A DNA stretch of 64,000 bases from Amoebophrya sp. A120 (GCA_905178155.1 CAJINV010000007.1:1965151-2029150), one strand, 5' to 3'. Shown: positions 2,026 through 60,600, counted from the first letter of the stretch. Notes: generated by a model not told the origin, from the sequence alone. Made by a program: numbers and translations.

Positions 2026-5000
2026 TCACCAGCTCGGCCAGTGAGTATAATCTTCTCTCAAAAATGCATTGCGCAGACTCTGATTTGCATCGGCCTCAGG
2101 GTCCGCCATGAGCGATCGCGCTTTCCTCCAGGTCAGCAGCCGCGCTCGATTCATCACTGCGTTGAACTTCTTCACCTCCTTCTCGTCGATCAGGTCCTTG
2201 AAGGCGTATCGGCTGCAAATATCAACATGTAGCCTGGGTTTCATCTATCGAGTGATGATTGTGAAGATCCTGAGGCAGTTAGTTTTTTTTCAGTAGCCTC
2301 TTCCACAATTTTTATCGGTTCTCTGGATCATCAGATGAAAAAGTAGGAAGTGTTGGTATTCATAGCAATAGTCATTTTTGATTCTGTGCATGTGCTAGCA
2401 CAAGAACAGACGCGCCGTCTCGGCGGCCATAGCTGCAGGATACATGGATCACAACTCTGAACAACTACCCAGGCTGACAGGATGTATGTTTGCAGAATGC
2501 ATAATTCCCCAGCTCTTGAAACCGCGTTGTAGAAGTAGTCAAACAAATCGCTGTCGGAAGCTTCCCCGTTCTTGATTTTTTCCGGTAATGCGTTGCAAAA
2601 ATAATATTAATATCGCACGAGACGGCTTAGAACTCATACACAATTTTCTACGTTTTTTCGAAAGAAGAAAGTGAAAGAAGAGCGTTCATGTTGTCATGTT
2701 CATGTAGATTCAGACAGCGTGTTCTTCGCGTGAGAGCAAAGAGCATATTTGTCAGACTATATTTTGATCTATCAGTACGCATCGTGCGATATCACTTTCG
2801 CTCGTCCGCAGGATACTGCTATAATGTTGGTACGCGGGAGGTCCGTGTCGAGTTGCCGCAGAGTGGGAAAGTTACTGGGCCACGTGCTGAGTGCCCATTT
2901 CTTAATTTCGGACAGCCAGTGAACGCCCTTGTCCTTGTCGATGTGACCTTTTATTTGTTGCAACGAATTTGTGTCCACAACTTCCTTCGGAACCCAGGGC
3001 AGCGAAAAGTACTTCTCTTTCAGCGAGGACTTCTCCGGTCGTGACGCCACCGCGGTGGACTTTGGCGTTGTTGCGCCCTCCTGTGCTGCACCAAGTACTG
3101 CTTGCTTCTGCTTCTCATCCACGACCGCGCTTTCGCTTTCCCCATCAAGGTTCTCCTTTGACTCCGCGTCCTCCTGATCATGTTCCTCCTCGTCGTCAAA
3201 TTTTAGAAAGAGAAAGTCCATTAACTCGTTGCCCTCAAGAACCCCGAAACGCAGCATCGTATCTGGGTCGGGCTTCGTGTATCCAGAAAAAAAAACCCAT
3301 CCCCATCCATTTTTTGCATGACAAACAAAGGTAAAGGAGCTTATGCATGTTTTGCATGACATTGACAAATTGGATGGGGATGGGTGTTTTTTCCTGGATA
3401 TCGTGGTCTGCTCCTGCGTTTTCGTGTTGTAGTACACGATGGGTGTGTCAGCTTGGTTGTTTTTCACCAGTAGCCACCCGTCCACCAACTCGAACATTGG
3501 CGTTTTCAGCAGCTTTCCCAGCGCTTCGTGCTCCTGTCGTAGGACCTTTTGAAAAACCACGCGCCGGAGCGTCGTTGCGATTCCAGTTTGGCTGTGCAGG
3601 TAGAAGATTCTCACGGGCGTGTCACCATGTTGCCCTCTATCTATTTTTTCCGCATCTTCTTCTTGTCCTAGCTTTGACTTTATTGTGTGCTTGTTGTGCT
3701 GTCCTTGGTGGCTATCAACTCCATCTTTGCCATTATTCTTGACGTGTTTCTTTGGCGTGGTCGAAGCTTTCTTGGTACAACTTCTTGTTCCATTTATTTT
3801 TGCGTTCGCCTTCTTGTCGTGTACGGCGATGTGCTGTTTCGAGGATGAATTTGCAACATTGCGAGGTGATGTTGAGTTTGAGGAAGAGGGTAATATGATT
3901 GACCGAGTAGATCGTCCTTCTCCGCTAATAAAGCGCTCGTTGATAGGCATCGTACGATAATCGCTGTTGTAGTGATCCAGCGAGCTATCGTCTACCGGAC
4001 CGGCCATCACGTACAGCCACCCTTCCGGCAATTCCTCGAGCTGCTGTGCGAGTCTGCAAAACCCGTGCCCAAAGGCCAGGTTTTTCTGTCTTTTGCGTAT
4101 CACTTTCAGTGGGAAAGTGCGCTTGGTCGACCCGTCTTGAAACTTCGACATGAGGAAGTCATGACACCAAATATAATGCGTGAGCTCGGGCGGAACCACG
4201 CTCAGTGTGGCCTTAGAAGTCTCTTCACCTCCTTCACGCTCAGCATCCACTCCGGCTGCAGATGGAGGTCCGTCAGCGGCAACCGCGACTGCAGTATTTG
4301 CAGCAGATGCGGTCTTCGTGCTGGGAGTTTGTGCAGTGGACAATGCTCCTGCAAGAACACCCGATGTTCTGCCTGTCGCATCGAAAGGGATTTGAACAGC
4401 AAGAAAGCTTTAAAAAAGACCATCCGGTGGGCGATCGAGATTCGCGCTGCAGGCGACTACAACTTCTTGCACATCCCCGGCAAAAAGAATGTTGCGGCAG
4501 ACTGGCTGTCCCGGCAGGGGCCAGGAGTGAGCGCAGCGAGAACCGAGTTCCACCGGCTCACTCTCGAAGGGAAACCTGTGCGGGAGCTGATCTACGACCT
4601 CTATCGGGTGAACATGCCCCCCCTGAAGTTGGTCGAAGAATTTGCCGCTCAGCACATCCAACGAGCAAAGAACGCGAAAGAGGAAAAGACGAAACAGAAG
4701 AAAGCAGAAAAAGCGGAGCAAGAAGTGAACAAGCAAAGGACGCAGCTTGATGCCATTTCCTTGACAGCCGCAGCGGTGTCGACAGCGCAGCAAGTAGCCG
4801 AGAGTGTCAGCGAGGAACTGACAGCAAGGAAAATCGACCCGCCGCTGCAGGTCCTGCCCGAGGAAAGCCCGCCGGAGCGGGACAGCCCAAGTCCCAGCCA
4901 GCGAGGGACTTGCACACCGAATGGGAAACGGAAAACGCCACAAGTTTCGATCTTGCTCAGCTCGCAAAAGAGGTTCACGGCACAGCAGCGCCTACCAGTG

Positions 5001-8000
5001 AAGCCCGTCCAGGGAAAAGTAAAAGTTTTCACGCACGACGACGCGAGGGGGAGCAGCATCTTCCTCAGGGCTGACGGTCAAAAAATCCTCTCTCGAGATT
5101 GATAGGTCCAAACCAACGGCAGCAGTTGTGGCTGTCTATTCGAGCGCTAGGCCCGGAGCGCGCGCATCGGTACATGTTGTATGCGACACGCGGCACGGCA
5201 ACACAGAAACAGGTGCGGGAACTGCTACGCAAGCACCTGCAGTCCCACCAGCCGATCGACATGTTCAGCGACGAGGCAGAATTTTGGTTCGGCCTCGAGG
5301 ATCAGCTTCGGGCGGGCGATGCACAAGTCGCCAGGGACGACCTCCCCAAGGAGGCAGCACCGCGCAAAAAGAAGACCACCCCACGGAGGCAGGGTAAAAA
5401 AGCCGAATCCGCGTTAGCAGTCCCTCCCAAAGACTCCCACGACCAAACCCCGAAAGGGCAGAAACCGAGCGGCCAGAACAGCACAAGCACCGCAGAGATA
5501 AGTGCTGCGACACCAGGGCAAGGAGGCAGTAGCAACGTGACTTCTACTTCTACTTCTACCGAAAGCCAACAGCTAGAGTTCAAAAATGTGCCCGACGCTC
5601 GTGGTGAGCTCGACTCTCGCTCAGAGACCGCTGCTAGGGCTGGCTCTCGGGATGAGATCGACGCTCCCACAGAGCTCGACACCGGAGGAAAAGACTTCGA
5701 TGAGGATGAGGAATTGTTCTGCCACACCATCGAAGGTGAGTACAGATGCGTCGAATTTGACTTCCGCTTGCTGGATATCGACCCAAAAGAATTCCAAAAG
5801 TTACAGCTCGAAGAATACCCGCCAAAAAAGCGCGCCCACAAAGTCTTCGAGGTCAAGGATGGCTTCCTGCTGAAAAAAGTACTAGAAGATGTGGGGCCTG
5901 TTCCGAAGATTGTTGCTCCAAAGAACTACACGACAAAAATCACGGAATTCTTCCACACCGACCCACTGCACGGTGGCCACTCCGGCCGCGAGAGAACGCT
6001 GGGGAAAGTCCGCGAGTTTTTCACTCACATGGACAGGTGCGGCAAGACAGGTCCGCCACTACGTCCGCGCGTGCCGCGTTTGCGCACAGAGCAAAACAAA
6101 AAAAGGCTTGACCAGCTTCGCGCGCAAGGATGGAATCGCAGTCCAGCCCTTACTTTGAAATCTGGCAGGTTGACTTTGTCGGGCCCATTACGAAGTCCGG
6201 GGGCTACTCCTGGATCTTAACGCTGATCGACATGTACTCGGGTTGGACAATTCTCGAGTGCACAGCAACGAAAGAAGCAAAGGAAGTAGCTGCAGTGATC
6301 TACTTCCGAGCGATCTGCGTCTTCGGTACTTAGATTCCGCGTCCTGCGGAGTGACCGCGGCACGGAATTTCTCGCGGCGATCGTGCAAGCGCTGTGCGAC
6401 ACCCACGGGATTAAACACATACTAGGAAGTGCGTACTCCCCTACTTCCCAATCCGAAATCGAAAGAATGCACAGAGTTCTCAGCGAATGCCTCCGCTCCT
6501 ACCTCATCGACAAATTTTTGAAAAAGAAAGTGCTCGACTGGCATCTGTTGATCCAGCCGGCAGCCTGGAGCTTCCACACGCACGTGCAGACAGGGAAGCT
6601 CGGCAAAAGTGCTTTCGAGATAGTCTTCGGCTGGCGCCCGAGCACATCTCTCACCATCGCAAAAAACAGCAGCGACTTCTTCTATCGTTTTTGGAATGAA
6701 AGAATCAAGAATATGATCGCGGTGCAAGACGAAATCATCGAGCTACAAAAAGAAAAGCAGGAAGAAATTGTAGAAAAACAAGGCGAAACGAAATTAAAGC
6801 AGGGCGATGTCGTCTTCATCCACAAAGAGATGCTCACGCAGGGCCTCTCGCACAGGTTGCAACCACTTGCGGATGGCCCGTACGAGGTCGAAAAAGTTTT
6901 CGGTAGTGCGATCACGGTCAAAACCGAAACTGGCAAAACGTTTCAAGTCAATTTGCACAGGGTCAAGTCAATCAGCTCGGGCTGACTCTCCGGATGAGAC
7001 TGACTGGCTACGAGCAGGAAAATTCAGAGTCCGCAGGAGGCAGGGTTGTAGACGGTGAAAAGATACCTAGTGAGAAGTGCGAGACTCTGAATTTCAGTGC
7101 TGTTGTTCAAGAAGAAAATGCGAGATGAATCAGACCGAGAAAGGAGCTACTGAAAGTTGAAAGAAAGAGAAAGATCAAAAGAGAAAAGTATGATCTTCCA
7201 CCTTGTCCAGTGTGCCCGCTTTAGGCTGTTTTGAAACAAGTCATTTTTGGTTTTTCAACACAGACATTGTTGTTTTCTTTCGCAGCGAATCTTCACCATG
7301 AACATGAATGAATGTCGATGAACATCTCAAAACAATAGGGCTTTTCTTATGGTGATAAAAGAATAAAAGTAAGAAAGGAATATATGAAAAAACATCTTTT
7401 TGCTCCTGCGGAGCAGCCTCTTTGTCAATCCTGGTGAAGTGTTCTGAGTCCCACGATCGGTATATTCTCACGCTTTTAGACAATGCTCCTGCAAGAACAC
7501 CCGATGTTCTGCCTGCACATATTTTCGTTTTCTCGTTTTCCACACTACAAGCAGAAGCCGCGTTTTTATTTGCTCTTGTTGTCTTCATATTATTGCTGCG
7601 AAGATTTTTTGATGGAGTCCCAACCGACTCGTTCTTCGAATTTTCCGATTCAACATGTCGCTGCGCTGTAGAAGATTGATTTCTCGCTACTTTATCACTT
7701 TCTGGAGGACGCTTGTTGGCCTGCTGCCCCTGCTCCACTTCCCGAGAATCATCCACCGTTTGCCCTACTTTCTTTCTCTCCACCCCGTCCTCTTCGTGAA
7801 TGGGCGCCAACGGGGAGTAGGTCTATCCAGGAGAAAACACCCATCCCCATTCATTTTTTGCATCACAAACACTGCACTTTATGCATGTTTTGCATTACAA
7901 ATTCGATGGGGATGGGTCTTTTTTTTGAGGATAAGGTCCACTCAATTGCTATGCCCCGGGAAAACTCGTCTTCTTGCAGCGCGCCAATTTGGGTCAGCTG

Positions 8001-8826
8001 CACCGGGCGACCACGGACCGCGAGGGAGGACACGTCGCAGAGTTTGCACGGACAGGAAGGCGGGCTGTAGGCGTAGACGGGTGCTGAAGTACTAGTAGAG
8101 GTCAAATTGTTCCCAGGTGCAGCTGATCTTGCGTCAGACGGTCGCTCATCTTCCGGCACATCGGGAATAGTAGTACCATGGAGGAGCGTCGCGTTTGAAG
8201 AGCAAGACAAAAGCTGCTCCTGTTCGACACAGTTGTTGATCTTCATGTAGTCCTTGTGCTCGATGTTGCAATGACGACCATCAATGCGCGGCATTTCAAA
8301 CGCAGCGCAGGTCCAGTGGTCGCTGAACCACGGGGCGAGGGCTTGCGCGAAGATTTTTTCTACCGGGCAAAAGAGGCGTGGGTGGATCAGTGTGCAAGCG
8401 ACGTACCCACACCGGCCAAACAGCTCGTAGATGGCGTCGCGCGCCAACAGGTTGGACTTTTTCGGCTTGAAGACTAAGCCAAGCAGTTGTTCGCCACGCT
8501 CCTTGGTCAATTTCCAGAAGCCGTGCCGCTTCAGGTCCAAGTCGAGCTTCGCTATTATTTTCTCCAGTTCTTGGTTCTTCGCATTGTACTGCATCGTCAT
8601 CTTCGTGTACTCCGCCAGACACTTTTGCACGTGTTGGCTGAGGGTCTTGCACCTCGCCGTTCGCGCCGCCGTCTCGCAGGCGCCTTTTAAAAGTCGGTCA
8701 CTCTCGGCCAACGTCTCATCGAGCGACTCGTCGCTGCTGTCGTCCTGTTTCATCGCTGCAATTAGGTTTTTTTGGGCTGTCTGCTCCTGGTTCTGGTAGT
8801 TCAGCCACTGTGCATTGCAAAAGTGG
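2026..8826 (-). CDS. Multi-exon hypothetical protein, probably the C-terminal continuation of the 8993-18572 gene; interrupted by introners and a 3.1 kb insert
   Basis: ORFs 7863..8840, 7241..7810 and 2772..4343 join in frame after removing 7824-7938 (giving ...GIAIEWT/YSPLAPIH...) and the 3140 bp between the 37-bp repeats (GRTSGVLAGALS). There is no ATG upstream of 8840 in frame. Exons below about 2800 are only partly resolved. Confidence 0.55.
3280..3400. mobile_element. Introner/MITE-like element, family A
   Basis: 30-bp TIR tatccagaaaaaaaaacccatccccatcca / tggatggggatgggtgttttttcctggata. TSD tcgtg at 3275-3279 and 3401-3405. Element plus TSD = 126 nt. Confidence 0.9.
4339..4375 (+). repeat. 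37-bp direct repeat, copy 1 (copy 2 at 7479-7515)
   Basis: gacaatgctcctgcaagaacacccgatgttctgcctg is identical at both sites. Confidence 0.95.
4376..7478 (+). mobile_element. 5'-truncated Ty3/gypsy-type LTR retrotransposon fragment inserted antisense in a host exon
   Basis: Bounded by the 37-bp direct repeat. Contains an RNase H C-terminus and integrase, with a purine-rich tract at about 7155-7190 downstream of pol. No LTR pair is seen. Confidence 0.75.
4394..6985 (+). pseudogene. pol: Degenerate pol (RNase H end, integrase zinc-binding, DDE core, GPY/F motif)
   Basis: RNase H end IRWAIEI...HIPGKKNVAADWLSR; zinc-binding HTDPLHGGHSG...YVRACRVC; core WQVDFVGP...LTLIDMYSGW, SDRGTEF and SAYSPTSQSEIERMHR; GPY motif LQPLADGPYEV. 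Broken by stops (5100, 6331) and frameshifts near 6030 and 6340. Confidence 0.85.
7824..7933. mobile_element. Introner, family A
   Basis: TIR tatccaggagaaaacacccatccccat. TSD aggtc at 7819-7823 and 7934-7938. Removing 115 nt fuses ORFs 7863..8840 and 7241..7810. Confidence 0.88.
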
Positions 8827-8992
8827 TATAATCTTCGCACTCGTTCATTTCGTACTAGTGGCCGCGGTGTTTTTGCATGACAGGTTTCATTGTCTCTCCA
8901 AAGCTGGCATATGAGCGACGTCTTACAAATTTTACTATATTCAACTTGAGAAAGCTTGTGTTTGTGATCATGCGATTTCTTTCTTACTTACT

Positions 8993-11900
8993 CTAAGTGC
9001 GTAGTGCGATTATACATGTTGCCACTTCTGCGATGCCTAGCTCGTCTAGCATATGGCCGACATTCGCGTTCTCCTTCAGCAGTTTCTCTCCGAATTCGTG
9101 GTTCGTTTTGTGCACCTGTTCCTGCAGGTCTCGCGCCGCGCCGAGCGAGTCCGCGTCCAGCTGCAGCCGCCTGATTTGTTCCTCCGGCGGTAGCAAAAGC
9201 CACTTGCACGGGGGTGCAAAGTAGTCCTGAATGCACGCGCCGAAGGTCTCCTGGGCCCACCGAAAGCTGTGTCCGCTGTGGGCACAGTAGATCCGCGCCG
9301 GGCAGGTTGAGGCTGTCGAAGATGTATTCTTTATCACAGCAACTGCAGCGCCAGGCGCCGGCGAGGAGGCACAGGAGCTCGCCTGTTGCACGGAGGAGAA
9401 GGACCTAGTACTCTGCACGGACGTGCACTTCCGCGCGAAACGATGGAAATCGTCCATGTCGAGGAAGCGATCCATCAAAGCGTTCCAGTTCACAGTAGCG
9501 GGCTTCAGAGCTTGGAAAATGCCGAGGATCTGGGCTTTGTGCAATTCCGATAATATTGTAGGAGGATAATATGCAGAAGCCTTCCTCTTGTTTTTCGTTG
9601 CAGAATGCACCGTCGCGGCACAGGAGCTCGAATAAATTTCTTTTGAAAATGTTGGGAGGTCGCTGTTTTGCTGTCCTGTCCCTTTCTTGTCCTCCTCTTC
9701 TCGCCGTAGTTGTCCACCTTCTCGCTCGGGCGTTGGCTGGATTGACTTCTCATCGTCACCTTTTGATGGCTCGGTAGCTGCAGGACCACCTCCTTCTTCT
9801 ACCGCACCCAAGTTGTCGTGGTCCACGTCACTGTAGTCGTCTGGCGGAGGAACATCAGGAGCTTCTCTAGAAGTACTAGTAACGGGCTGCAGCTGCGACT
9901 GTAGAAACCACGTTTGGATTTGCACCGCCCCTTCCCGCAAGTTTTTTCGGAGTTCGGCAAGTGCAACCATCCGGTTTATGGTAAACAGGTCCGTCACATC
10001 CAGGTTGTCCGGCCGCCCACTGCCGATGAATTCGCCGCATAGAGTCCCGATATTTACGACCGCGATGGCGGACTTGGAGTCTCTCTTTTCCGGAGCGTTG
10101 TCCGGCCGGTTCCACATGGTCAAGCTGCCGACTTCGAAAGTAGAGGTAGATTTCGAAGTAGTTGTGGGAGGTGCTGCGGGACCAGCGCCGGTGGCCACGC
10201 CCTTCGGTGTCATCGAGAGAGACTGCTTGGCCTTCGACCCGCTAGAAGTTCTTGAAGTTGTGCCCAATGTTGATGCGGCACAGGAACTAGTACTTGCTGC
10301 ACCGGTCGAACAACTGGAAGTTGCGGGTGCGGAGGACGTTGAAACTGATGTTCTCATAGGATTCATTCTCCGCTGTCTCACCTCCTTCAAAATCTTGTCC
10401 CCGACCGTGAGCCGGCCTGTCAAGTAATACCGGACCAATGCAAGCCGGTTGGATCGGTCCGCGAAGGGTAAGACGGACCGGAACAGCGACGGTCTCACGC
10501 CGGAAAGCCACAAGAATTGCGCTTCCGCAGCGGAGAACACGGGACAGGGTGGAGCTTTTGCCTTTGCTGGGAAAATCTTCGGGTCGACGGCGTGGCGATT
10601 CCATTCAGTCTTCGCTACACCTCCAGCAGGAGATGTGAAATTTTGACGCAGCTGGTGCTCCTGGTTAATATTCTTCGTGTTGCTTGATGCCTTGCCGTTC
10701 TTCAGGCTTTTTCTGTTCTTGGCGCTAACGACATTGCTGCCAGGGTTTTTACTTCCTGCTGCTGCCGGTGGTAAGATCTTCCGATCTCCGCCTGAGCAGC
10801 TTGCATCAAATAATTGCTCGTGGTGCAGCTGAAACACGCTTGCACTACTTACGACGCCCGGCTTCGTATCCGGGCGAACTTGGAGCCTGTGCGGATCTAC
10901 TTCGGACACACTTCGCTTACCGTCGTCGGCCTCTGACCCAGCTCCCGTACAACTCGTGTCGATCTTGCCACCAGACGAACCATCGTGAGGAAGAGCTTCT
11001 TTCTCATCGACCAATGTGTAACCGACCTTGAGCCAATGCTCCAGATAGTGCCGAGGCTCGAGCAAGTCCTTCCATGTGGTGCCGATAGTTGTGTCGTCGT
11101 GCTTGTAGTTCTTGTGCTCCTGCTGTGGTTCGTGGTTATTACCCTGGTTTATGATCTCCTCGACCTCGTCCACAGGGTGGTCGGCATGAACATCACGAGC
11201 GCCGCCGGCGCTAGTATTCTGATGCTCTTGTTTAACGCCTTCCTTTTTGTGTAGAATGCAGCGCCCTTCTTCGTCTACGCTTTGGCCGCGCACTTTTTCG
11301 ATTGCGCGCACAAACGACTGTAGGGCGGAACTCGACCACACCGAGCTGGAGTATGGGACTCTCAGGTGTGACGCTCTCAGCTGTTCCTGTTCCATGAATT
11401 TGTCATGCAAAATTGGCGTCAGCATCTACACGAAAAAGCTGCTTCGCGTGACAAATTCTCGACGCGCTAGATAGCATTACGATCTGCTCCAAACCTGTAA
11501 TGCAAAAGTAAAGGCGCAACCTTTTCGTTTTCCCTTTTGCCATGCTTGCATTACAAATTTCACGTAACAGTTGAGAGTGTACTAGCGCTTGAGAACGCCG
11601 TATGTAGTAGACCTGGAAAACGTCCGCCAGCGGCACTGCGTCCTCGTCAAAGTCTTTCAACATCGCCACGATTACGGAATACTTCGCGACGGTATATGCG
11701 GAGGCTGAAGCCGCGTGGTAGTAAACTGCTGCTCTGGACGAGGAAAAGGTCGTCGAGTTGTTCTTGTTCTTCATTTTTTCGCCGCCAGGAGCTGAACCAC
11801 CTCCGGCGCAGCTGTTCTTCTTATTCCAAAACAACTCGAGCGACCCTTTTCCGAAAGTCGATTTGTCGTGCAGCAAGTCGCTGAGGTCTTCAAATTCCAG

Positions 11901-14900
11901 GTTCAGATGCGTGCCGTTGGGTTCGAAAAAATCCACGCCAGAGGAGGGCGCGGACGCGAAACATGGCGGAGAAGGAGAAGATGGGAGAGAGGTTTTATCA
12001 TGTGCAGCACAACTTCTAGCGCTCTTGATGTTCTCGATTTTTCCATTTCCCTGTGCCTGTGCTGGTACTGTGGGAGATCGGGAGGTAGCACTGCTAGCGT
12101 CCTCGGCCGCCGGCGAGCTATTCAGTTGCGAAGAAGATGATCCCGACGCCGACGACGATGTTTCTTTTGGACTATTTATTCTGGCGTTTCTGTATTGTTC
12201 CTCTATTTCGGCAACTCTGCTTCTGTACACTGTGCGCTGAATCGATCCGAGTGGATACAATTTTTGTGCGACATTGTCGACAGCCTTAGCCTATCCTTTG
12301 CAAAAGTACTATCGCACACACGTGCACGTAAATCTAAATAATGGCGGTCATGCCATGACAGAAAATCGCTTCTCGTGGCTTTCATCTTAGGCCGATCTGC
12401 ATTGCTGGAAATTCTTTTATGATTGGAAAAAAATTGTAAAAAATGCAAGAATCCATTATATTACACACTTCTACGATAGTACGGCACTCCCCTTGCAGGA
12501 CATACAGTCCATGTCGCCTTCGAGGTCCCTAACCAGAAACAACTGTGGTCCGTCTCGGGCGCCATTGTGGGCTGGTCCTCATCTTCTGAAAGCAACTTGT
12601 CACAACAACTTCCAAGTCCCTGCCGACTCTCGGAGCTGCAAGCCTTTTCCGCTTCCTCTTCGCCGCCCAAGGAGCTGGAGCTACTTTCAAGAACAGCATC
12701 TTCCTGGTCCTGGTTCTCCTTCTCTGAAAGTTCCGCGAGGAGGGCCTCCTTGGCCGCACTACTACGGAGCGGGACTTCAGCTCGCTTAACAAATGATGAT
12801 GTGCTGGCCAGCTGCTCTTTACTAGAGTCACATAATTGTTGTTGAGAGCCAGCAGCGTAGTTGTACCCAGAAGCAGCTGCGCGCTCTTGTAATCGCCGGA
12901 CCTGTTGTAGAAATTCTCCGCCTTGAAAGCCTCTTATGACTTTTCCACCGGAGCCGAAATCCGAATCACTCAGGGAGGATTTGTTTTTGTTAGTTTCCTG
13001 GTCGTCCTCTACAACTGCAGGAGTCTCTTCGGGTTTCGGCTTCATCGCTGCGCTTGCGGCGTGCACTTCTTCTATGCCTCCTCGTCTTGCCGCTTCTTGC
13101 CGGCGCTGGGCGGGAGCACTAATTGGGGTCTGGATTGTTGTGCTTGGTCTGCTTTTCAAGAACAGCCTTCTCGGAGAAGAGGAAGGATCCTGCAGAGACA
13201 GCACTGACCATGGCTGTGGAGGAGACTCCTCCACAGCCATGGTCAGTGCTGTCTCTGCAGGATCTTCTTTCATCGTCTTGTTCGCCTCGTCATTACGAAC
13301 TTCTTCTGCCGTAGGTCCGGGAGTAGCTATTTCGTCGCTGCTTCTAGTACTAGCCGCTAGGGCTGGAAGGTCATTTGGCTCGACGTCCGATTTCTGCCCA
13401 CTTGCGGATCCGTCTTTCTCGGCGCGAATTTGTTTTGAAGCTTTCTTCACATTTTCTTTGAAGACATCAAAAAGCTTGTTGTTCTTGGACACTAGAGCTT
13501 TAATACGAGCACCGCGAGCACCGCTCTCGTGTTCCACATCGTCCTTCGCAAGGCGCGTGCGACTGCCTTGCTCATCTCCTTCTGGTTCCGCACTAGTTGT
13601 AGTAGTAATAGATTCATCCTTCTCTTTAACATCTTCCAAAAGAGCGCCAGCAGTCACAGCTCCTACCGCAGCTCCTCCCCCTGTATCAGAGCCGCACTTG
13701 TTCATCTTCCCATGCTCACTTTTCTTCACCTGTTCTGCCGCAATGATCTTTTCCATCTGTTCGTCCAACACGGCACACGCAATCTGCCAGTCCATGCCCC
13801 ACCGCTTCTCCAAATACTCTTTCCGCGCAGCATCAGCCATTGCCAACACCTCCTCTTTATCGAAAGAAAAAGCACTAAGGCCCATCGCATCCCAATTGAT
13901 TTTTTGTATGACAAACGCCTCCTGTAGTGCACGTTTTGCATGAGAAATTGGATGGACATGGGTCCTTTTCTTTGTTTGATACTCGTTCATCATCACCTCC
14001 ACCTCCGCGGGGCTTATCCCCACCTCGGCCCCCGCGTTTTTCGAAGACGTAGGAAGCAGGGCGCCGACGCTGGCCGTCGGGAGCGGCAACCCGCCACTTC
14101 CGGCGGACACAGGGAGAAACAGTTGCTGCATTGGGTCCTCATAGTGCATCGCGGATGCCATGGGCTCTTTCGCAGCCTCCAAGTAGGCTAGGCGGAGGAG
14201 GTTCTGCACCAAGACTTTGCAGGTTTCCAAGCCCTTCGGCACCGTGGGGCTGTGCTTCTGGAATTCTTCCGGCAGTTTCGGACACGGAACGAACAGGCCG
14301 GACGGAGCTCCACACAGCAAGCCGTTCGGATTGTCCGGGGCGAATTTCTTTTTGGCCGCCGGAGCATTTGTTGACGTTAGGGAGGTGGAAGAGCCTTTAA
14401 CATTGCTCCGACTAGTACCTCCCTCAGAAGATGCGCTGGACCCCCGGGGTATGGGAGTGTCAGGTTTGAAATCGACAAAGTTGAAATAACTTGTAATGCA
14501 TAAAATCTATACCAGTTGGAAGAGGAAGCCCAATTTCAAGCGGCGCATGACAAATTTCGGCGCCGTCTAAATCCAGCTTGTCATGCTGTTTAGGTAGAGA
14601 AGGCGTTTTTTGTCATGCTACTTTAGCAGCTCTACCGCAGACCCCAAACGGTCTGACAGTCGGCCTCACTTGCCGCCCCTGCAAGAGAGGCACTTCATGC
14701 CTTGCAATTTATGCATGAGAAATCATTTCAACTTTGACGATTTCGATCCTGACACTCCCATACGGGGGTGTTCTTCCGTATACCAGCTTTGCATTAGCTC
14801 GACGGAAAGCCAGGCGTGCTGCGCGGTTATGCTGAGTCAAAACGTCCCCACCCCAGAGTTGCCATGCAAATCTGCATGCCAAAAAAGTTTGTCATGCGGA

Positions 14901-20443: not shown

Positions 20444-20559
20444 TTGGTAGTGATTTGGACCAACTTTTTATCGGCCAAGAAAATCGAAAAAAAATCCGGT
20501 GGCGCGGCGAAACTGTAGAGGCCAGAGCCAACCAACTTAAGGGGGGCGATTCCCGATTC

Positions 20560-46291: not shown

Positions 46292-46538
46292 GAACGCACG
46301 TCAGAGATCTGATGTCTTTGTACTGTTACCTTTGCGCTATGGGTCGTGGAGCCAACAGGTAACAACAAGGATCAGGATGCGAAATAGCAGGTCAACAGTG
46401 GTCGTGTTTACATATTGACTAGGCAGATCTGCATCTGGAAGTAGAACGCACCTACTTAGAAAATAAACGCCAGGACCACGTAGTCAGTAACTTACTCATA
46501 GCTGTTGCGACACGATGACCACTTGCTCATCTGAGGTA

Positions 46539-49343
46539 CTAGTAGATTAATATATACCATTTCGTCGTAAAGGCTTGCAGCAGAAGGGAGAGTTCCTGCG
46601 ACGTATTCTCGACCGCACTGCAACACGTATGGAACTGTCAGGATCGAAATCGTCAAAGTTGAAATGATCTGTCATGCATAAAATGGATGTCAGCTGTAAC
46701 CCAGTTTCCACGTGGCGCGTGACAAATTTGGATCGAACCGAAATCCAGTTTGCCATGCTGTTTGGGTAAGGGCGACGCCTTTTGTCATGCTACTTTGCCA
46801 GCTCCCTTTCTGTTTCTACCTCTCAACAGGCTTACAATCTGCCTCACGTGCCATCCCGGCAAGACAGGCAACTCATGCCTTGCATAAAATGCAAGACAAA
46901 TCATCTCAACTTTGTCGATTACGATTTCAAACCTGACACTTCCATAACACGCGTGCGGAGCGTCCAGGTCGGCGGCGAATTCCGCCGCCGCCCGCGCCAC
47001 GCGTCGATAATTTTCCGAGCGAGCGACGGGATCATGATCGTCGTCGTGTTCGTGTCCTTGATGCCCCTTACCTCCAGCTTCTACCGCTCTCTCTCCGTCG
47101 TTCTGCTCCTCGTCCGAGGGTGAGCGTCTTCTTGGTCCTTTTTTGTCGTGGTTCGCAACAGCAGGAGCTTGTTCTTCTACCAAGTCATACTTCAATCCGA
47201 GGACCAGGATTGGGCCGGCGTTTTTCTCGAGCGTGGTCAAGATCGCGCCGCGTTGTTGCTGCAGGTACTGCACCGATTCCAGCTTTGTCACGTCGTAGAC
47301 GAAGATGACGGGCGTGGCCTTGTGCAGCGGCAGAATCCTGGGCAGCGTCAGGTACTCCTGAAAGTAACACGGCACCGCCGCGCCGGCCGTTTCTTGCCAC
47401 CGCTGGATAAGCGTGGTTTTCCCTACGGAAAAACCCCCGACAACCAGGATTTTCGGAACTGGAGCGGTGAAAAGCAGCTTCCTGCTCATCTGCGTTAAGA
47501 AGTCTGGCTCTTTCCTCCTCGCTTGTTCTGCCGAAGTAGAGGATGAGGAAGAAGTAGTTGAGACATAATTGTTTCTACTGCTGGGAACACCTCCTGTGCT
47601 GAGAATGTTCACTTTTCTCGTCATACCGGTGCCCCCGACGCCGGGGGCACTCGCACTGTTCGGCAACAAGCAAGTGCTAGGACCACTCGAAGTCATCGTC
47701 CCTGCTTCTGGACTACTCGCAGTGAGCGCGACCAGGGAGGAAATTTGGGTCAACAGCGCCGAAAGGTTAAGCCCCGTTTTCGCGGACGTGAAAAAGTGCA
47801 ACAACCGCATTTCGTCGCAGAAGTCCGCCACTTGTATCACACAGAAAAAAGCACGCAGGTCGAATTTGTAAAAATGCAAAAATAGAGACACAAAAAAAAA
47901 CTGCATCGCGTATCCTAGACAGCATGCTACGGGGCCGCCCATACATTCATTTTTCGCGGCATTACAAATTAATATCGATATCCCCTGCCTGCTTTTTTCT
48001 GTGGGGTAACTTCCGCGACTTGTTCAGAGGAAAGCTCTCCAGGCACCGGGCCCAACTGCTCATGCAGACAAAAGTTATTGTTGTTCCGCATCTGGTAATG
48101 TTGTTCTTTAACAGCTGCATTCGTCTTATTATTTCCGTGCTGCAGCAGATCTTTAACTTTATTTTTATCGTCCTGGAGGTCGTCGACCTCCACTCCGTCT
48201 GCTTTACAACCGACCACAAGCATGACGCAGTCGGGGCACTCCCGCGGGTTTCCCAAAATCTGCCGGTGCCAATGTTTCACACCGTCGAATGTGTCCTCAA
48301 AGCTCGTCACGTCGTACACTAACAGTGCCAACCGCGCATCGCGAAAGTAGCCGGCAAGCGCACGGTGCACATGGTCACCTCCGAAACCGCAATCGCACAG
48401 GAGAAAAGAAGTTTTTTCATCTACTTCACCGAACAATCCTGCAGCAGTGGGGGAGGATGTTGTTGTTGAAGACACCAGCGTTTTCGTCTGGTATTCCGTG
48501 GGATGGTATTGCGAAGTGAAAGCTCCTGCTGCAAGATTTTCGTGATCCTGACGCTTTTCTTGATCACCCAGAGGAGTTTCTTGGTCTTGCCCGGCCCTGC
48601 CCTCGACACGTGCAGCCTGTAGTATGAGGGTGAACAATTGCCTCTCCCGTCCCACATTTGGATGGCATCAACACAAGTGCTGGCTGCACAGATGCAGCTT
48701 TTGCATGACGCATTCACTTTCACGACCAATTCTAGTGCTGTTTCGGCTCCTTCGGAAACCTGTCACGCAAGCAGTTCCAAAGGGCAAAGGGTGGACTAGG
48801 CATTTTGCATGACAAATGACGGGGAGGGGGACGAGTTGTGCACTCTCATATGCAGCACCGCACTATCACTAGGAGGTGACGATGAAGAAAATGCTGCAGC
48901 GCTTCCACTTGCTTCTTCTAGAAGTGGCCCTACGCCTGTTCTACTTCTAGTTCTTCCACTTTTTTCGGAGATCGCTTTTTCTCCACTCCGTCGTGAGGCA
49001 GCCAGCAATAAACCTTTGCCGAGCGACGTCTTTCCAACAGCTGCGTCGCCGATATGGAGTCCCCAAACGACGCCACACTGCTAGCGGTTGCACGAATTCG
49101 CGACGCAAAAATACCAAAATAGTAATAGATGAAAGGGTGACCTTGCCAGTCCTCTTGCATTACAAAATTGGAAAGAAGTAAGTAGCTTAATCATGGATCA
49201 TATGAAGCGAGGCGGAGGCGGATGAAGATGATGGTAATTTTGCATGACAAATCAAGTATACATCAAACAAAGTAACGTTTGAGTCTCCCATACCCGACCA
49301 GAATGACCTTGCGGCCAGCCACCGTGCCGTGCTGGGAAGCCAT
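46539..49343 (-). CDS. Tandem two-domain Rab-like small GTPase (about 607 aa, 5 exons)
   Basis: Domain 1: RKVILVG/DAAVGKTS, YFRDARLALLVYDVT, VVGCKAD, FFTSAKTG. Domain 2: KILVVGGFSVGKTTLI, FVYDVT, VLGLKYDL, HAC/CSAVEN. Assembled by removing 245, 233, 179 and 324 nt. Confidence 0.82.
46628..46946. mobile_element. Introner, family B
   Basis: TIR tatggaactgtcagg / cctgacacttccata. Perfect TSD acacg. Element plus TSD = 324 nt. Confidence 0.92.
47835..48008. mobile_element. Introner (cacagaaaaa-type TIR)
   Basis: tatcacacagaaaaaagcacgcagg / cctgcctgcttttttctgtggggta. TSD acttg/acttc. Removing 179 nt restores the frame. Confidence 0.85.
48623..48850. mobile_element. Introner
   Basis: tatgagggtgaacaa / ttgtgcactctcata. 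TSD tgtag/tgcag. Removing 233 nt restores the frame. Confidence 0.82.
49053..49292. mobile_element. Introner splitting the P-loop
   Basis: tatggagtccccaaacg / cgtttgagtctcccata. TSD gccga/cccga. Removing 245 nt gives KVILVGDAAVGKTS. Confidence 0.85.
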
Positions 49344-53526: not shown

Positions 53527-53534
53527 ATCGGCTC

Positions 53535-54045
53535 AAAGAGAAGCCGGGAAAACAGAAGCCGGGAAAAGAGGAGCCGGGAAAAGAAGACACCGGGAAAAGA
53601 GAAGCAAGCCGGGAAAAGAAGAAGCCGGGAAAACAGAAACCACGAAAAGAACAAACCGGGAAAAGAGAAGCCGGGAAAAGCAGAAACCGTCCGAAAAAAG
53701 AGAAGCCGGAAAAAGGAGAGCCGGGAAACCCAGAAAAGAGAAACCGGGAAAAGAGAAACCGCTAAAGGAGAAACCGCGAAAAGAGAAACCGGAAAAAGAG
53801 AAACCGAGAAAAGAGAAACCGGGAAAAGAGAGACCGGGAAAAGAGAAACCGGGAAAAGAGAAACCGGAAAAAGAGAAACCGGGAAAAGAGAACCCGGAAA
53901 AGAGAAACCGAGAAAAGAGACCGGAAAAAGAGAAACCGGGAAAAGAGAAATCGGGAAAAGAGAAACCGAAAAAGAAGAAACAGAAAAAAGAGAAACCGAA
54001 AAAGGAGAAACAGAAAAAAGAGAAATCGGGAAAAGAGAAACCGGG
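53535..54045 (+). repeat. Tandem array, unit about GGGAAAAGAGAAACC (15 bp)
   Basis: Directly visible purine-rich array, followed by a short inverted remnant at about 54047-54080. Confidence 0.93.
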
Positions 54046-54654
54046 ACTCTCGGTTTCTCGATTCTCGGTTTCCGGTTTTGCGTTGCTCGATTCGGCTCAT
54101 TTTATGCCTGGCCATGGATTAACTTGATAATACTAGTATGATTTATAGAGTATTGAATTAAGTATATGGCGCTCCTCTTGAGTGAGCATGTGCTTCCCAT
54201 GTGCCTGCTACTAAAGTAATTCTTGCGCTTTCAATTGCAAAAGCATGTCTTGCATTGTCAACTGCAAGAGCATGCAGAAGACGTTGGTTTTCTCCACTCA
54301 GCTCCCGCCAGAGTTGTCTACAAATCAGCAAGGCCACGCTCTAGCTGGTCGCCTCTCGTCGCGTTCTCGTCATTTTCGACCTCGCTTCTATCTTCCTCTT
54401 CCTGGTTCGCCAGCAGTTCTCTACTGCGCAGACGTTCGGACGTCTGATACGCAGGGGTCACGTGAAACCGCAGCAAATGATGTTTGTAGTTTGCGGACTT
54501 GGTTTTCCCAAACTCCCCGAGAAAGCGAAACCTGAGTCGGTCGCCTTCCTGCGCTTGCTGGAGCAGCGGGTGCTCCTCTCGCAGGAGACGGGTGCTCACT
54601 CATGCATTGCAGATATGTCGGGGCCTGAGTCTTTGATGAATGTTGATGCAGATA

Positions 54655-57600
54655 TCAGCAACACAAGTTTCCAGACCCAGACATATTTGCAGTGGATATC
54701 ACTTCCGGCGGTACCGCGGTTGGCGCACGGGGCTGGGCCGCCGGCACGAAGAGGTGGAATCCACAGATGCTGAGCTGATGGTCGTGCAGCGCCTCGATCG
54801 TAATTGACTTGAGGACACGGTGGACAGACGCATCGTAATGAAGAGTTTCGGGAAAGGGTACCGGCAAGCTCTGCAAACTGGTGGTCTCATCGTCAAAGTA
54901 AATCTTTGCACCTTTGATTCTGTTTTGGTCTCGAAAGTTTATTTTTCCATCAGGATAAAGACGCGGAAAAATGCGGAAGCGGGTGACGTAGCGGGGCTGG
55001 TTGTCCCGAAACTGCACGCGCCATGTCCCCCTTGGCAGGCTGGTGGCGGCAAACACCTGAACTTCGTTCAGGTTTAGCATGCGCTTCAATGGATCAGGCG
55101 ACGTCATGGAGGCCGTGATGCCGGGCAGCTCGATGGTTAGGTACTTGCCCTTCTTGTCCCCGCAGGTCACTTTAGCGGTGGCCACCTCCCCGGACACCAC
55201 GAACCGGTCTTTGCAGGTAGCTCCTTCGCCTTCTTTGCAGATGATGTGCTCGCAAACTTCGACAGGATCAGGGTCCGGACAAGGGTCCCCAGGCGCGGTC
55301 CCCTGCCACCACTGCCGGGTTGTGCCGGTTGGGGTATGCCAGCGGGAAGTGGCGGTCCTGTCGCGTGCGGTGTTGGTGAGCAGAACCCGAAGGCCGGCGT
55401 TCTGCTCCCTGGCGAGGTTTCCCTCCGGCCGGCCCGAGTTCCCAGCGTCCCACGTGTGGGAATGATCATCATAAATGAAAAACAATCGGCGAAGCCGAAA
55501 TAGGTCACCTCCATCGTGCCGCGTGCTCAGCTCCACATGGCTCACCGGAGTGTCGTCTGGTAACTCTATTTGTATCCAGGGGCACTTCTGGGCTGGTGCG
55601 CCATACGAGTCGTCGGCAGTTGTGAACATACCACCGGCCACGTTTCCGTCAACGAGCAGTGGCGCGGCGGTGTGCTCGTTGAACTCGCTCGAGACCGTCA
55701 CCTTGTCCGCCGCCAGTGCGAGATGGGCAGCTGGAGAGGTTGTGCCAGTGGACAGCGAACACATGTTGCGGTATTGCAGGTCCCCGCCTTCTCGGTAGTG
55801 CAGCGGGTTCATGGGATTGCAAGCGGCGGCGTCGCTACACGATTCCTCACCAACAGCCGTGGCCGTCAGCAAAAGTGGGTCCACCTGCATGTCGTTGTCC
55901 GGCACCGCGAAGCTCTCGCGCTCGACCTGCTGCAGCTTCTCCACTTCCCAAGGCTCCACGTACCGTTTTTTCCATCCGCACGACATACTCCCATCCCACG
56001 AGCCAAAGCCGCCCCGGGCTTCCACCTCCTATCCACTGTAGAAAATTATATCGCGCTCGTATGAATATTACAAAGTGCCAGTCTTGCTGCATGACCGATG
56101 GAGTTCTTTAGTTTTATTTATACCATAATCTGCATGACAAGTTAATCCAATTTTCTTCTTGATGTCATGCGACTTAAATTTATACCAGTACGATACTTTT
56201 GCATTGGATACCTCCGCGAAGCCCGCGATGTCACACAGCCGCAAAGACAACCCGTCGTCGCTGCCAATGCAGCTATGTCCGCCGCTGATACACCGCTCGC
56301 CGCGCGTGCCCACTCCTCCATACTGCGCGCGAAGTGCCAGCGTGGTGCGCTGCGTCACCTCTGTTCGGTGACTTTTGCTGTTCAAGTAGTTCTGCTTGAG
56401 GTTGCTCCCCCCCACCAGGCATAGGAAACCAACCATGGCATGACACCGCACATCGTTAGCGCACTTCTCGAGCATGTAGTTGTGGTCCTTGATCGTCGAT
56501 ATTGTCATTGGACCTGGATCGCTTGCTGATGCCGGTCCCCCGTCGAAATCCGAAGTGGGGTTGGTTTTCAAAACGCAATGGGTGTGCGTTCGCGATTGCG
56601 ACAGATCTGCATCTGCATTGGAGTCTTTGTAGTACACCCATTCCCAGACAAACGAGGGGCTCACCGCGCATTGGTGATACGCGCCAGCCGGATTCGGAAA
56701 CAGGTCCGGGCGGTGGACTTTCAGCGGTTGGCACTCCGCCGGATCCGTCGTGCTGGTTGGGTCGCAGCAGACGCCGCGCTCGCCCGTGATCGAGTCGCAG
56801 GCGGCACAGAACCCGGCACTCGTCCCCTTGTGTGGGTCGCATACGTTCAGGCAACTACCGATCTGGTTCCCGCACCCCACGCACTTCGACACGGGCGCGC
56901 GGGCCGCCGCCAGCGTGACCGTCAACGAGGCGACCCGTGCTGGCACGGGATCCGCGCTGTCCTTCGGCCGCAGAAGCTCCACGCGCAATTTCGTGGCCAT
57001 GGTGACCCGGTTCGCCGCGGTCAACGGCATCTGCTGCATCCGCGACCGAATGCCAATCGTGCGGTCCGTGCCCCAGCGAACCACGATGCGCAGCGAGGCC
57101 AGCGCGTCGAGGTCTCAAGCGTTACATTGATAGTCGTTACATGACTTTGTGATGCTGCGAAAATAGGAAATAAAGTGAAAGGCAACGGGGGGGCTTGATC
57201 ATGTGCGTCTTGCATTACAGACGACTTGGCACGGATTTCAGTGCAATTTTGCGCGTCGAGCACCACGATATGTCATGCATACCCGACTGCACCACATCAA
57301 AAACCTTTGCACCGTCGCCGCAAGTAGCTGCTTCGGACCACGATATGTCATGCAAAGCACCACCTTGAACGTATGGAGGACGATAGTACTTCTACTTCTG
57401 CATGATCACAAATCATGTAATAACGATCAATGTAACGCTTAAGAACACCGTACAGCGTCCCCGTCAGTTGCGAGGAGCTATCCAAGATGACAAAAACATC
57501 ATCACAATCACAGTTGCCTTTGCACAAGTTTTTTTTTTTTTGCGAATGCAAAAAGATCTACTTATCTATCATAATTGCGATTGTGATGGCATTTTCTTGC

Positions 57601-60600
57601 TCCTGCATAGGACCAGTCCCGCTGCCAGTCGTCCAGGATGCCACGCTTCGCGCTCTGGTATAGGTGCGGCGTTGCCCGGGAGAGACCCAATGCCGCCGGT
57701 GCTTCCGGATCGTACACGACCAGGTACAATTTTTCGCGGCGAAAGAAGTAGATCCCCGCCGTGGTAGGACAAACTACGATGGGGTAGGGCATTCTTATCA
57801 GAGTGTTGCCGCTTTCCGTCCTGGAGCCAGGAAAGTCCGCACTTTGCCGCCCGCTCCCGGCGATGCTGTGCTTGTAGGAGTAGACCGTGGTCACCCCGCC
57901 GGGCTGCGCTGGGTCCGTCCCGCCACCGCAGTCCCGGACTAGTCCCTGATGATTTCGAAACGCTGCCACGTTTGCTTCCGCGGCGAGAGTCCCCGGGCCA
58001 AAATTCGCCGGGTCCGCGTAGAATCCGGCGTCTTCCGCTTCCGAGCACATGTGCAGGTAAATGCGAGTCTCTGTGAGGAAATTCGGCGAACCGGGATGGC
58101 TCCAGATCTTCACGGCCGTCCCCAGGGACATAATGGATTTGTAGTCAAACTCGTCCCGCGCGACATAGACGCACAGATCGTGGTTTTCATACGGGCCCCC
58201 AACGCTGTTCACCTTCCGGGTGCTGGTCGGCGTGACACGCCACGCGCTCTGGTCTGCGGGAAGCCCTTGCCCCCGCTCTTCCAACCACCGAATGGGGATC
58301 GTCCGCGTCGCCGGGTTGAGCACTGTTCTGTGATTTTGCGTGCGTTCCACCTGCTGGACTAAGCGCTCGAAAAGAAAATTATTGTACATGAATGAATAGA
58401 GCGAGAAGCTCGTCGGAGTCCGTGGTCCTCTATTCCGGACAACCTTTGGGGGCAGTACCGCGTTACTTGGCATCTTTTTGCCGGGACTCGGGGGGACCAG
58501 GGTTTTCTGAGCGCACTCACAAATGAAGATCAGCTGCGTCCCGGAGTCTGTGTCGGATCCGTCGCTCTGCTTGTGGATCTTCACCTGCGTATTCGGAAAC
58601 CCCACACGCTCGAAGCCGCTGCCATAGATCCTTCCGTCGTCGTTACTCTGCTCTTCCCAAGTCGGATGCGCCCCGCTGTGGGTGCCCCCGATATTGCGGA
58701 GGGAAGGCATCCACTCCTCTTGCGTGTCCCACGCATTCTGGAAGGCTTGCTGGTGGAAGACAAAAATTTCCAGGAAAACGTTGTGGATGTCGATTTCAGC
58801 AACCACCGTGTTCTGGTCCCCCGTCCCCTTGTTTCGCGGGAACTGCAGAAAGACGCACTCTGGTAGGTAGCCGAGTTGCATAGCCGCGCTCTTCTTCGCG
58901 AACTCTGCCCGGGCCGCCGCGTCGTCGGGGCGCTCGGCCAGTTCCGCAAAAAAGTCAGCGTCGTGGATCGCCACCAGGTTCTTGAAGGCGTCGTTGTGTC
59001 GCAGAAACTCCTCGCTGTCCGTGAATGCCTTCTGGTCCTCTTCCGCGACATGCAGTGCCCAATATTTCAGGGAAATCATTTCAAACGGAAAGTTTGCCCG
59101 GACCTCGAACTGCGTTACGCTCCCAATTGCGGGGTACCTCGCGTATCCGACGTTTCGCAGGTAAATATGCACGCCGCAGAAGTCCGGGGGATGGTCAGCT
59201 GTTTTCCCAGGCAGGTGGCTGATCTTAATGGAATTCACCCACCGCCCAACCTGCACCCAGATGCTACCTCCGGGTCCGCTGGAAACCCACTTCCCCTCGC
59301 TGCCCGCATTGCTGAGTGCGTCGTAGTTGGCATGCGTCTTCGAGTAATAATCTAGGAGCACCACTTCGTCTACCTTCACCTTCAGTCCGTCACCCGGGAA
59401 GTGATTTGATCGTCCAAACAGTGTGAAACCTTCCACCATGCGCTTTCCACCGTCGTTCCAATATAGCCAGAGGGCTGCGTCTGAAAACGAGTGCGGGCCG
59501 TCCGAGCAATATTTGAGGCCGTCCATGTAGGCAATATCCGCGGAGACCCGCCGTCTACGTAAATCCGAGTATTTACGGAGCAGCTGCGCTTCGTATTTGC
59601 GGTTATTGGGTGGCTCGGCGCCTTTCGTATAATTCGCCCTCATTCCCTGGTAATTCTCCACCAACGTGGTCCAAGAAGATGGCGTTCTGTCTTGGTCGGG
59701 CGGAAACGGGAGAGGAACACCGGTGATTGGGATCATGAGATAGAGATGAAATCCGAAAAGAACGGCTTCCCCGGTACTGCCGCGTGGTCCAATTTTCAGT
59801 TTGGTTCCGACCTTGTTCAATAGGTAGAACTCCCCGTCCGTACGGGGTTCGCTCGTGATTTGTATGAGCTCCACGTCGTCCACGTAGATGTTGAACTGGT
59901 CCAGCGAGCCATATGGCGACGCTCGACCAAATAGCATGACCCCGGCGATGGGGCGCGCCGCACCGTCGGCGAATTCCACCTCCAAGGCCGTGCTCGTTTC
60001 TTTAGCATGCCACACATAGGGTCGCTCTGGGTTCGTCACCATGTTATTACTGCCCCCCGAGTCGACGGAAAAGTCCGTGTAGGGTCGGTTGAAGATCTGC
60101 CGCACGTCTCCGCCGAACGAGAGCGAAGCTTCCCCGGTGGCGGTGAGCCCATACCCCGGGTCAAGGGCGCCCGTGAAGGGGTTGCGAATCGGCATAGCGT
60201 ACTGCGGCACCCGGAGATACAAGTGGAACCCGCATAGCCGCAGCGCGCCCGTCGTGTATGAGGCGATGTTGCCGGCTACGATTCGCAGCTCGGTTGCGAA
60301 GGTGGGTTGCAAAAGAGGCACCCACTGGCCCCGCTTCGCCGCATCGTCCACCGTTTGGATGGTCACGCCGGAAAACTTGCCGTCCAGATACACTTTGGCT
60401 TGGTTCATGCCGTCGTTATCATCTTGGTAGGGCCCGTAGTTCGTTTCCGCACGAAACCACGCAAACCCGGCTAGTAACCGGGGCCGGTCGTCCGTAAACC
60501 GGACCTGCCACCAAGTTAGCTCGTACGTCGGGCGAAGGATACCCCCGGCCTCCATGGGCGCCCACTGCTCGCCCCAGGTGCACCAGGGTTTCGCATGTCC

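Follow-up and report, generated by a model that had tools for sequence, protein, structure and literature searches.

Introners at the locus

We analysed a window of 64,000 nt from Amoebophrya sp. A120 (CAJINV010000007.1:1965151-2029150), by which we mean the whole stretch of DNA, with attention to the short inverted-repeat elements that interrupt its genes. The long reading frames of the window lie on the minus strand, which is the transcribed strand, and are interrupted by AT-rich inserts. One annotated A120 protein, P0001 (99% over 57% of the query), can be traced residue by residue along 2029-10366, and a second, P0004, was placed at 11835-12706. The inserts with TAT at one end and ATA at the other are the published inverted-repeat introners of Amoebophrya A120, and as introns they leave the RNA together with 5 nt, all in the same register.

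Earlier work has already described this class of elements and its odd borders, and has called for another mechanism. According to the parts of Farhat 2021 (PMC7789003) drawn on here, more than 60% of A120 introns are non-canonical, and many have inverted repeats of 8-20 nt that start with TAT, 7 nt and AAA, together with direct repeats of 3-5 nt. Non-canonical borders and an alternative mechanism were proposed there, and the legend to Fig. 3 describes splice sites that vary relative to the hairpin and a border that is unknown. Our elements share with these introners the organism, the TAT-7 nt-AAA repeats, the direct repeats, removal from RNA at borders other than GT-AG and the occurrence of repeated families. 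They also have the features of a miniature inverted-repeat transposable element: terminal inverted repeats, a target duplication and no coding capacity, with stops or frame-shifting lengths inside. Farhat 2021 found no autonomous transposase in A120 (PMC7789003), and Gozashti 2025 reports A120 terminal-inverted-repeat elements with open reading frames resembling those of long-terminal-repeat elements.

Public sequencing runs were compared over two stretches, 34600-50300 and 54300-63300. Run X1 behaves like DNA, with about 25-fold depth over both stretches and very high depth over the elements. The RNA status of X3, X5 and X6 is a guessed label rather than one on record; X3 and X6 skip two canonical GT-AG introns and X6 has an oligo-T end at 37170, so both behave as mRNA. 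X3 and X5 lack coverage of the gene at 54.3-63.3 kb, which has no bearing on its expression. In the first stretch 15 of 51 joints were listed, from which we set aside two canonical joints (kept as controls), the empty-site joint 42858>43743 and one DNA-only joint; in the second all 12 joints were listed, seven of them DNA-only cross-matches between repeats with sides of 20-22 nt. Sixteen element joints remain, 10 seen in X3 and X6, one in X3 only and five in X6 only.

To these 16 RNA-shown introns we added seven that come from protein annotation (P0001, P0004) and not from reads, and eight that are predicted, giving 31 in all; 27776-28027 and 33137, for neither of which the 5' end is established, are left out. 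A 15-nt gap of P0001 at about 9245-9259 was taken as an annotation artefact. The ortholog P0002 was not used as evidence at 29587, where it resembles a gene-finder guess. Throughout, k is the number of bases of the upstream duplication copy that are retained in the 5' exon. The features follow, with end dinucleotides given at k=4 and the names of elements in brackets.

RNA-shown introns:
42194..42354 (-), introner intron, 161 nt, CT..AG; joint 42191>42353, X3 and X6; exact duplication GAAGC, which alone does not fix the register
42453..42693 (-), introner intron (42457), 241 nt, AT..GC; joint 42451>42693, X3 and X6; two mismatches, k=4-5
42920..43737 (-), intron (42924), 818 nt, TT..CT; joint 42919>43738, slide 0, X3 only; no duplication, k=4 exact; inside an 884-nt insertion missing from X1 and X6
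44627..44740 (-), introner intron of the small family, 114 nt, GT..AC; X3 and X6; exact duplication
44813..45030 (-), introner intron (44817), 218 nt, TT..TC; joint 44811>45030, X3 and X6; upstream allele ACTCT retained, k at least 2
45286..45480 (-), introner intron (45290), 195 nt, CT..CA; joint 45285>45481, X3 and X6; decayed duplication (4 mismatches), k=3-4
45813..45982 (-), introner intron, 170 nt, GT..TG; X3 and X6; exact duplication
46624..46947 (-), introner intron of the ~315-nt family, 324 nt, TT..TG; X3 and X6; exact duplication
47831..48009 (-), introner intron (47835), 179 nt, TT..AG; joint 47829>48009; k at least 1
48619..48851 (-), introner intron (48623), 233 nt, AT..AC; joint 48617>48851; upstream allele CTGCA retained, k at least 3
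49049..49293 (-), introner intron (49053), 245 nt, GT..GG; joint 49048>49294, with junction peptide; downstream allele TCGGC retained, k at most 4; interrupts a GTPase P-loop motif
54597..54699 (-), introner intron, 103 nt, AT..TG; X6; 3' arm ends ATG
56026..56211 (-), introner intron (56030), 186 nt, GT..AG; X6; duplication GGAGG
57101..57453 (-), introner intron, 353 nt, GT..CT; X6; 3' arm ends ACG, terminal pairs broken
57475..57610 (-), introner intron (57479), 136 nt, CT..TC; joint 57472>57609, one X6 contig, depth 8.4; upstream GGTCC retained, k at least 2
62370..62519 (-), introner intron (62374), 150 nt, TT..TG; joint 62368>62519, one X6 contig, depth 4.8; two mismatches, k=4-5

From protein annotation:
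2203..2504 (-), intron, 302 nt, TT..CC; P0001; k=4 is among three cuts that reproduce the protein
2583..2816 (-), intron, 234 nt, GT..CG; P0001; 3' arm ends ATT
3276..3401 (-), small-family introner (3275), 126 nt, AT..CG; P0001; duplication CACGA
4338..7522 (-), 3185-nt gap in the annotated protein, with a decayed integrase-like insert; P0001 annotation only; ends fit N-TAT and A-7; weak rve match below cut-off
7820..7934 (-), small-family introner, 115 nt, TT..CC; P0001; duplication GACCT
8805..9040 (-), intron, 236 nt, CT..GG; P0001; arms TAG and ACA
12288..12505 (-), intron (12292 element), 218 nt, GT..CT; P0004; k=4 is among three cuts that reproduce the protein

Predicted from sequence:
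11348..11603 (-), intron (11352), AT..CC; k=4 predicts upstream allele CTACA
13854..13982 (-), intron (13858), GT..GA; k=4 predicts upstream allele ACGAG
14446..14763 (-), ~315-nt family intron, GT..CC
14824..15107 (-), intron (14828), TT..CG; k=4 predicts downstream allele ACCGC
16101..16411 (-), ~315-nt family intron, TT..CC; duplication AACCT
16458..16724 (-), intron (16462), TT..GC; GC-AG option k=2 indistinguishable in mRNA
29233..29352 (-), small-family intron, CT..TT; ortholog P0002 continuous over the site; duplication ACTTC
29583..29714 (-), intron, GT..GA; two mismatches

Canonical controls:
38273..38570 (-), GTAC...CTTCAAAACAG; RNA joint, X3 and X6; U+2, A+3, A-7
46242..46557 (-), GTAT...CTTCAAAACAG; RNA joint, X3 and X6; U+2, A+3, A-7

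Splice borders and the cut register

A preliminary description of this DNA held that sliding the cut through the 5-nt duplication offers GT-AG in only two of 22 elements (56030 and 57479) and GC-AG in one (16462). We rebuilt 27 TAT...ATA candidates between 3275 and 62523, 26 of them inside 3275-57614, and recovered the same three: over k=0-5, GT-AG arises at 56030 (k=4) and 57479 (k=1) alone and GC-AG at 16462 (k=2) alone. The duplications CACGA (3280), GACCT (7824), AACCT (16105) and ACTTC (29237), said to be devoid of GT, have none in any register. Random 5-mers from the window give GT-AG in 3.3% of cases and GC-AG in 2.5%; 0.7 of 22 elements would thus be expected to offer GT-AG (P=0.16 for two or more), and two of 22 is the level of chance. 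Canonical borders are therefore under no selection in these elements. The window holds more than 22 such introns, some with no recognisable duplication (for example 42920-43737 and 45286-45480). Across the exon-intron borders of the 31, the 5-nt repeat is exact in 13, has one mismatch in eight and is decayed (2-4 mismatches) in 10.

All 16 element joints in the RNA contigs remove exactly the element plus 5 nt, and in record 9 of X3 the record coordinates run across the joints without extra letters. Copies with a mismatched duplication had been put forward as a means of fixing the cut, and the eight named (11352, 13858, 14828, 44817, 47835, 48623, 49053 and 57479) each carry exactly one mismatch. 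The test proved workable for five of them: 47835 requires k to be at least 1, 44817 and 57479 at least 2, 48623 at least 3 and 49053 at most 4. Four further joints bring the informative set to nine, with 45290 limiting k to 3-4, 42457 and 62374 to 4-5, and 42924 giving k=4 directly (joint 42919>43738, slide 0). The sole value permitted by all 16 joints is 4, so the intron reads N-TAT...ATA-NNNN, cut 1 nt before TAT at its 5' end and 4 nt after ATA at its 3' end. Independent uniform cuts would bring the nine informative copies into agreement with P=0.004 (0.015 when 42924 is omitted). The junctions from the annotated proteins permit k=4 in seven cases out of seven. For 11352, 13858 and 14828 a protein search gave no match; P0001 begins downstream of these copies and P0004 ends before reaching them.

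Borders other than GT-AG are used at 15 of the 16 RNA joints, and the one register fits all. The single GT-AG, at 56030, coincides with k=4 because its duplication happens to be GGAGG. At k=4 the first intron base is T in five, G in five, C in three and A in three of the 16, with AG at the end in three. The element at 57479 discriminates between the two options: GT-AG needs the downstream allele to survive and k=4 the upstream one. The X6 contig carries the upstream GGTCC, so k is at least 2 and the GT-AG on offer at k=1 goes unused.

The bases U+2, A+3 and A-7 are invariant in the RNA-shown introns (16/16), with the annotated ones added (23/23) and with the predicted ones added (31/31), eight of the 31 having been chosen by their TAT/ATA ends and all coming from one window. 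Of the features of a U2-type intron, U+2 and a purine at +3 are present throughout (16/16 and 31/31), and the terminal dinucleotides, GT (or GC) first and AG last, occur as GT-AG in 1/16. The bases that would pair with the invariant ones are less constant. T+4, the partner of A-7, occurs in 11/16 (Fisher p=0.043) and 24/31 (p=0.011), and the partners of +2 and +3 are kept in 56/62 against 62/62 (p=0.028; the 16 RNA-shown introns alone give p=0.24, not significant). A role as a stem only would predict equal decay of both arms, and they decay unequally. The arms are paired, with T, A and T at +2, +3 and +4 in 31, 31 and 24 of the 31 and A at +14 in 25. A U-tract lies at -15..-18; its asymmetry is weak (p=0.19, 0.035 and 0.054) and is not used as support. 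Both canonical introns seen (n=2) start GTA and end CTTCAAAACAG, and both have U+2, A+3 and A-7.

These results modify the earlier proposal that the cut is set by distance from the stem base and not by dinucleotides. As that proposal would have it, the cut follows the element ends and bypasses a GT-AG at 57479. The donor is not free of signal, because the TA of the element gives U+2 and A+3 of the canonical GUA donor. It is also doubtful that the stem base serves as the ruler: in 8/16 spliced introns the terminal pairs are predicted to be unpaired (P<0.25), and conservation is asymmetric between the arms.

Two repeated families are present in the window, with five and three copies, and in both every copy faces one way relative to the transcript (5/5 and 3/3). 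All 16 RNA-shown introns shift the frame (11) or carry stops, and 15 would do so in any frame. The motifs TGTCATGC and TGTAATGC recur inside many elements in both orientations (3280, 7824, 29237, 29587, 44631 and others), and in the small family they lie at about -48 and about -80 from the 3' cut. They may serve as sites for a transposase or as branch sites further upstream.

Candidate mechanisms of removal

The introners are probably removed by a relaxed or modified major spliceosome that reads U+2, A+3 and A-7 instead of GT-AG and cuts 6 nt past A-7. The element would insert with a 5-nt target duplication, and its left inverted-repeat end would supply bases 2 and 3 of a GUA-like donor, which would place the 5' cut 1 nt before TAT. 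The right end would supply the adenosine A-7, possibly the branch nucleotide, behind the U-rich tract, and the 3' cut would fall 6 nt beyond it. One nucleotide of the upstream copy and four of the downstream copy would make up one duplication, so that almost any insertion could be excised without a scar. The ends are likely drawn together with the help of the inner stem (+9 to +16).

Several published observations speak for a modified major spliceosome. In the parts of Farhat 2021 consulted (PMC7789003), 83 of 89 spliceosomal proteins and the U2, U4, U5 and U6 RNAs were found in A120, with U1 undetected. Table S4 of that paper has T at +2 in all nine commonest border types of A120 and all nine of A25, and the A25 repeats begin TTA; N-U-A may thus be a shared donor. 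The U2-type introns of Yarrowia lipolytica, as presented in the sections of PMC2911113 used here, normally have the branch motif 1 nt from the acceptor, fused with it, which puts the branch adenosine near -6 and offers a precedent for one about 6 nt from the 3' end. Unlike A120 introners, they keep GT, YAG and a CTAAC motif and lack transposon ends (PMC2911113). The introners of Fritillaria borealis (PMC11282704; bioRxiv 10.1101/2025.08.15.670264) are transposon-derived introns with inverted repeats and target duplications, mostly not GT-AG, to whose ends the U2 spliceosome has adapted. They differ in having preferred border dinucleotides (AG-AC, AG-AT), whereas +1, -2 and -1 in A120 are free target bases, and U1 is retained and modified there but undetected in A120.

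A number of points weigh against this interpretation. One junction alone fixes k=4 and the others give ranges, so that a spread over k=3-5 is disfavoured yet still allowed. The test at 57479 depends on one contig of depth 8.4, with a short side made up of the 20 nt of exon that separate two introns, and the evidence as a whole consists of assembled contigs, in which minor isoforms drop out. The comparison with canonical introns involves two of them. The choice of A-7 as the branch point is a guess from its conservation in 31 introns of one window; its context (G or C at -8) differs from the branch motif CTAAC, and the U-tract sits on its upstream side. Loss of G+1 and of AG removes contacts used by known spliceosomes. 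Finally, pairing in register at +9 to +11 is found in 12, 13 and 12 of 16 introns, against about five under independence, as expected of an enzyme that reads structure and equally of transposon ancestry. The stem in its fixed register is real and may matter, although ancestry alone could also explain it.

An extension of the modified major spliceosome, which we entertain tentatively and consider rather doubtful, is that one machine with a rewritten code serves canonical and introner introns alike: a donor N-UA, a branch adenosine at -7 and a 3' cut 6 nt beyond, with G+1 and AG not needed. The transposon ends would then be the code itself, and chance matches to it could rescue unrelated insertions. 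If this were so, any insertion would at once be a scarless intron, and the 884-nt insert and the 3.2-kb retro-like insert described below would be such rescues.

A different explanation, unlikely in our judgement, is a route independent of the spliceosome, in which an endonuclease and a ligase attach to the hairpin, make the cuts 1 nt ahead of its base and 4 nt past it, and seal the exons together; such a route has been suggested for the nonconventional introns of euglenids. It would suit a register that is fixed and asymmetric, end dinucleotides that are free, and pairing in register above chance at +9 to +16. The failure to detect U1 in A120 reported in Farhat 2021 (PMC7789003) also points this way. 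So do the similarly built euglenid introns, which exit as circles without lariats according to the passages of PMC11282704 used, and the paired-end introns that diplonemids have beside an intact spliceosome in those of PMC12621601. Euglenid nonconventional and diplonemid non-canonical introns, as far as these sources cover them, resemble A120 introners in end pairing at a set offset from the cut, duplication-like repeats and the lack of GT-AG. The euglenid introns, however, have CAG at +4..6 and CTG at -8..6, no pyrimidine tract and circular products, whereas the A120 introns have TA at +2/+3, A-7 and the U-tract at -15..-18; T stands at +4 in 24/31, and -7/-6 are A/T, so the CAG/CTG pairing is absent. 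An enzyme that grips the stem is also hard to reconcile with terminal pairs predicted to be open in half of the spliced introns and only about four terminal pairs in 42920-43737 (long-range folding being unreliable), with asymmetric conservation that matches the GTA and A-7 of canonical introns, and with families that hold one orientation despite symmetric ends. We know of no candidate enzyme.

Donors of the minor (U12-type) spliceosome have the consensus RTATCCTT, and odd end dinucleotides are tolerated there. Seven of the 31 introns carry TATCC at +2 to +6, but RTATCCTT itself occurs in none (0/31) and the first base is free. Physarum provides a precedent for U12 introns with repeated ends in the part of PMC11282704 consulted, whereas U11, U12, U4atac and U6atac were not found in A120 by Farhat 2021 (PMC7789003). 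Removal by a U12-like machinery is very improbable. That the elements are self-splicing RNAs, as the internal TGTCATGC and TGTAATGC motifs common to many copies might suggest, is scarcely credible, given lengths of 103 to 818 nt with unrelated interiors, the absence of these motifs from several spliced copies and no Rfam match at gathering score over the whole window.

A hairpin with direct repeats is the classic setting for false introns. With the RNA label of X3 and X6 only guessed, the joints might in principle reflect template switching by reverse transcriptase, or DNA excision as in the eliminated sequences of ciliates; this least probable explanation is largely refuted, since there are joints at slide 0-1 with no repeat to support switching, retention of any of the 16 introns would shift the frame or bring stops, canonical introns are likewise skipped in X3 and X6, X6 has its oligo-T end, and none of the 16 joints has any depth in the DNA run X1 among the joints listed.

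Larger insertions, neighbouring features and significance

Three larger insertions accompany the introners. At 42859-43782 the window and X3 carry an insertion of 884 nt with a perfect 40-nt exon duplication around it; DNA run X1 and RNA run X6 lack it. In X3, 818 nt are spliced in accordance with the k=4 rule and 66 in-frame bases are left. The pattern resembles a very recent gain of an intron, or else a loss by recombination, with no 5-nt target duplication. At 4339-7515 a 3.1-kb insert with a 37-nt exon duplication holds decayed integrase-like frames on the plus strand (rve E=3.6e-4, below cut-off). The annotated P0001 leaves out this insert and also 15 codons of the frame at the empty site, and the borders of the gap fit N-TAT and A-7. 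Either cryptic signals have provided a rescue or the gap is an artefact of annotation. The third insertion, of 1299 nt at 33062-34435, has a perfect 75-nt exon duplication and a clean element arm at one end; splicing from its nearest N-TA donor would retain 77 nt, with a frameshift as the result.

The genes around the introners have features of their own. Several Ras/Rab-like GTPase domains lie on one transcript at 46946-49565, in which an introner directly precedes the P-loop and the mismatch in its duplication is synonymous. A large exon at 57565-63153, of about 1600 codons with no Pfam match, belongs to a gene with at least five introners. Over 54876-55796 there are 11 listed places at which X1 departs from the window and X6 agrees with it, which reflects either a paralogous copy or a line difference. 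A perfect 79-nt palindrome lies within an open frame at 13186-13264. Intergenic segments of shifted GC content at 20553-21134 and 52656-54046 are complex tandem arrays, built from a 21-nt unit with a palindromic core and from 8/16-nt and 15-nt units. A 46-nt inverted repeat without TAT/ATA ends occupies 63666-63999, up to the end of the window.

We did not find a fixed register or a branch position stated in the literature on Amoebophrya introners and splicing, as represented by titles, the openings of abstracts and passages of PMC7789003, PMC11282704, PMC12130899 and PMC11453091. Where the published border is variable or unknown, in the excerpts of PMC7789003 used, the introns of this window share one register with invariant U+2, A+3 and A-7. 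Table S4, the sentence on direct repeats and the legend to Fig. S23 of that paper are compatible with k=4. A single register and three invariant bases lead to testable predictions about the location of the branch, the bases to mutate and the spliceosome contacts that would be altered. The same parts of PMC7789003 count 66,565 introns in A120, 65% of them non-canonical (about 43,000), for the re-annotation of which the k=4 register provides a rule. Since the cuts remove exactly one target duplication of any sequence, an element can insert almost anywhere without damage.

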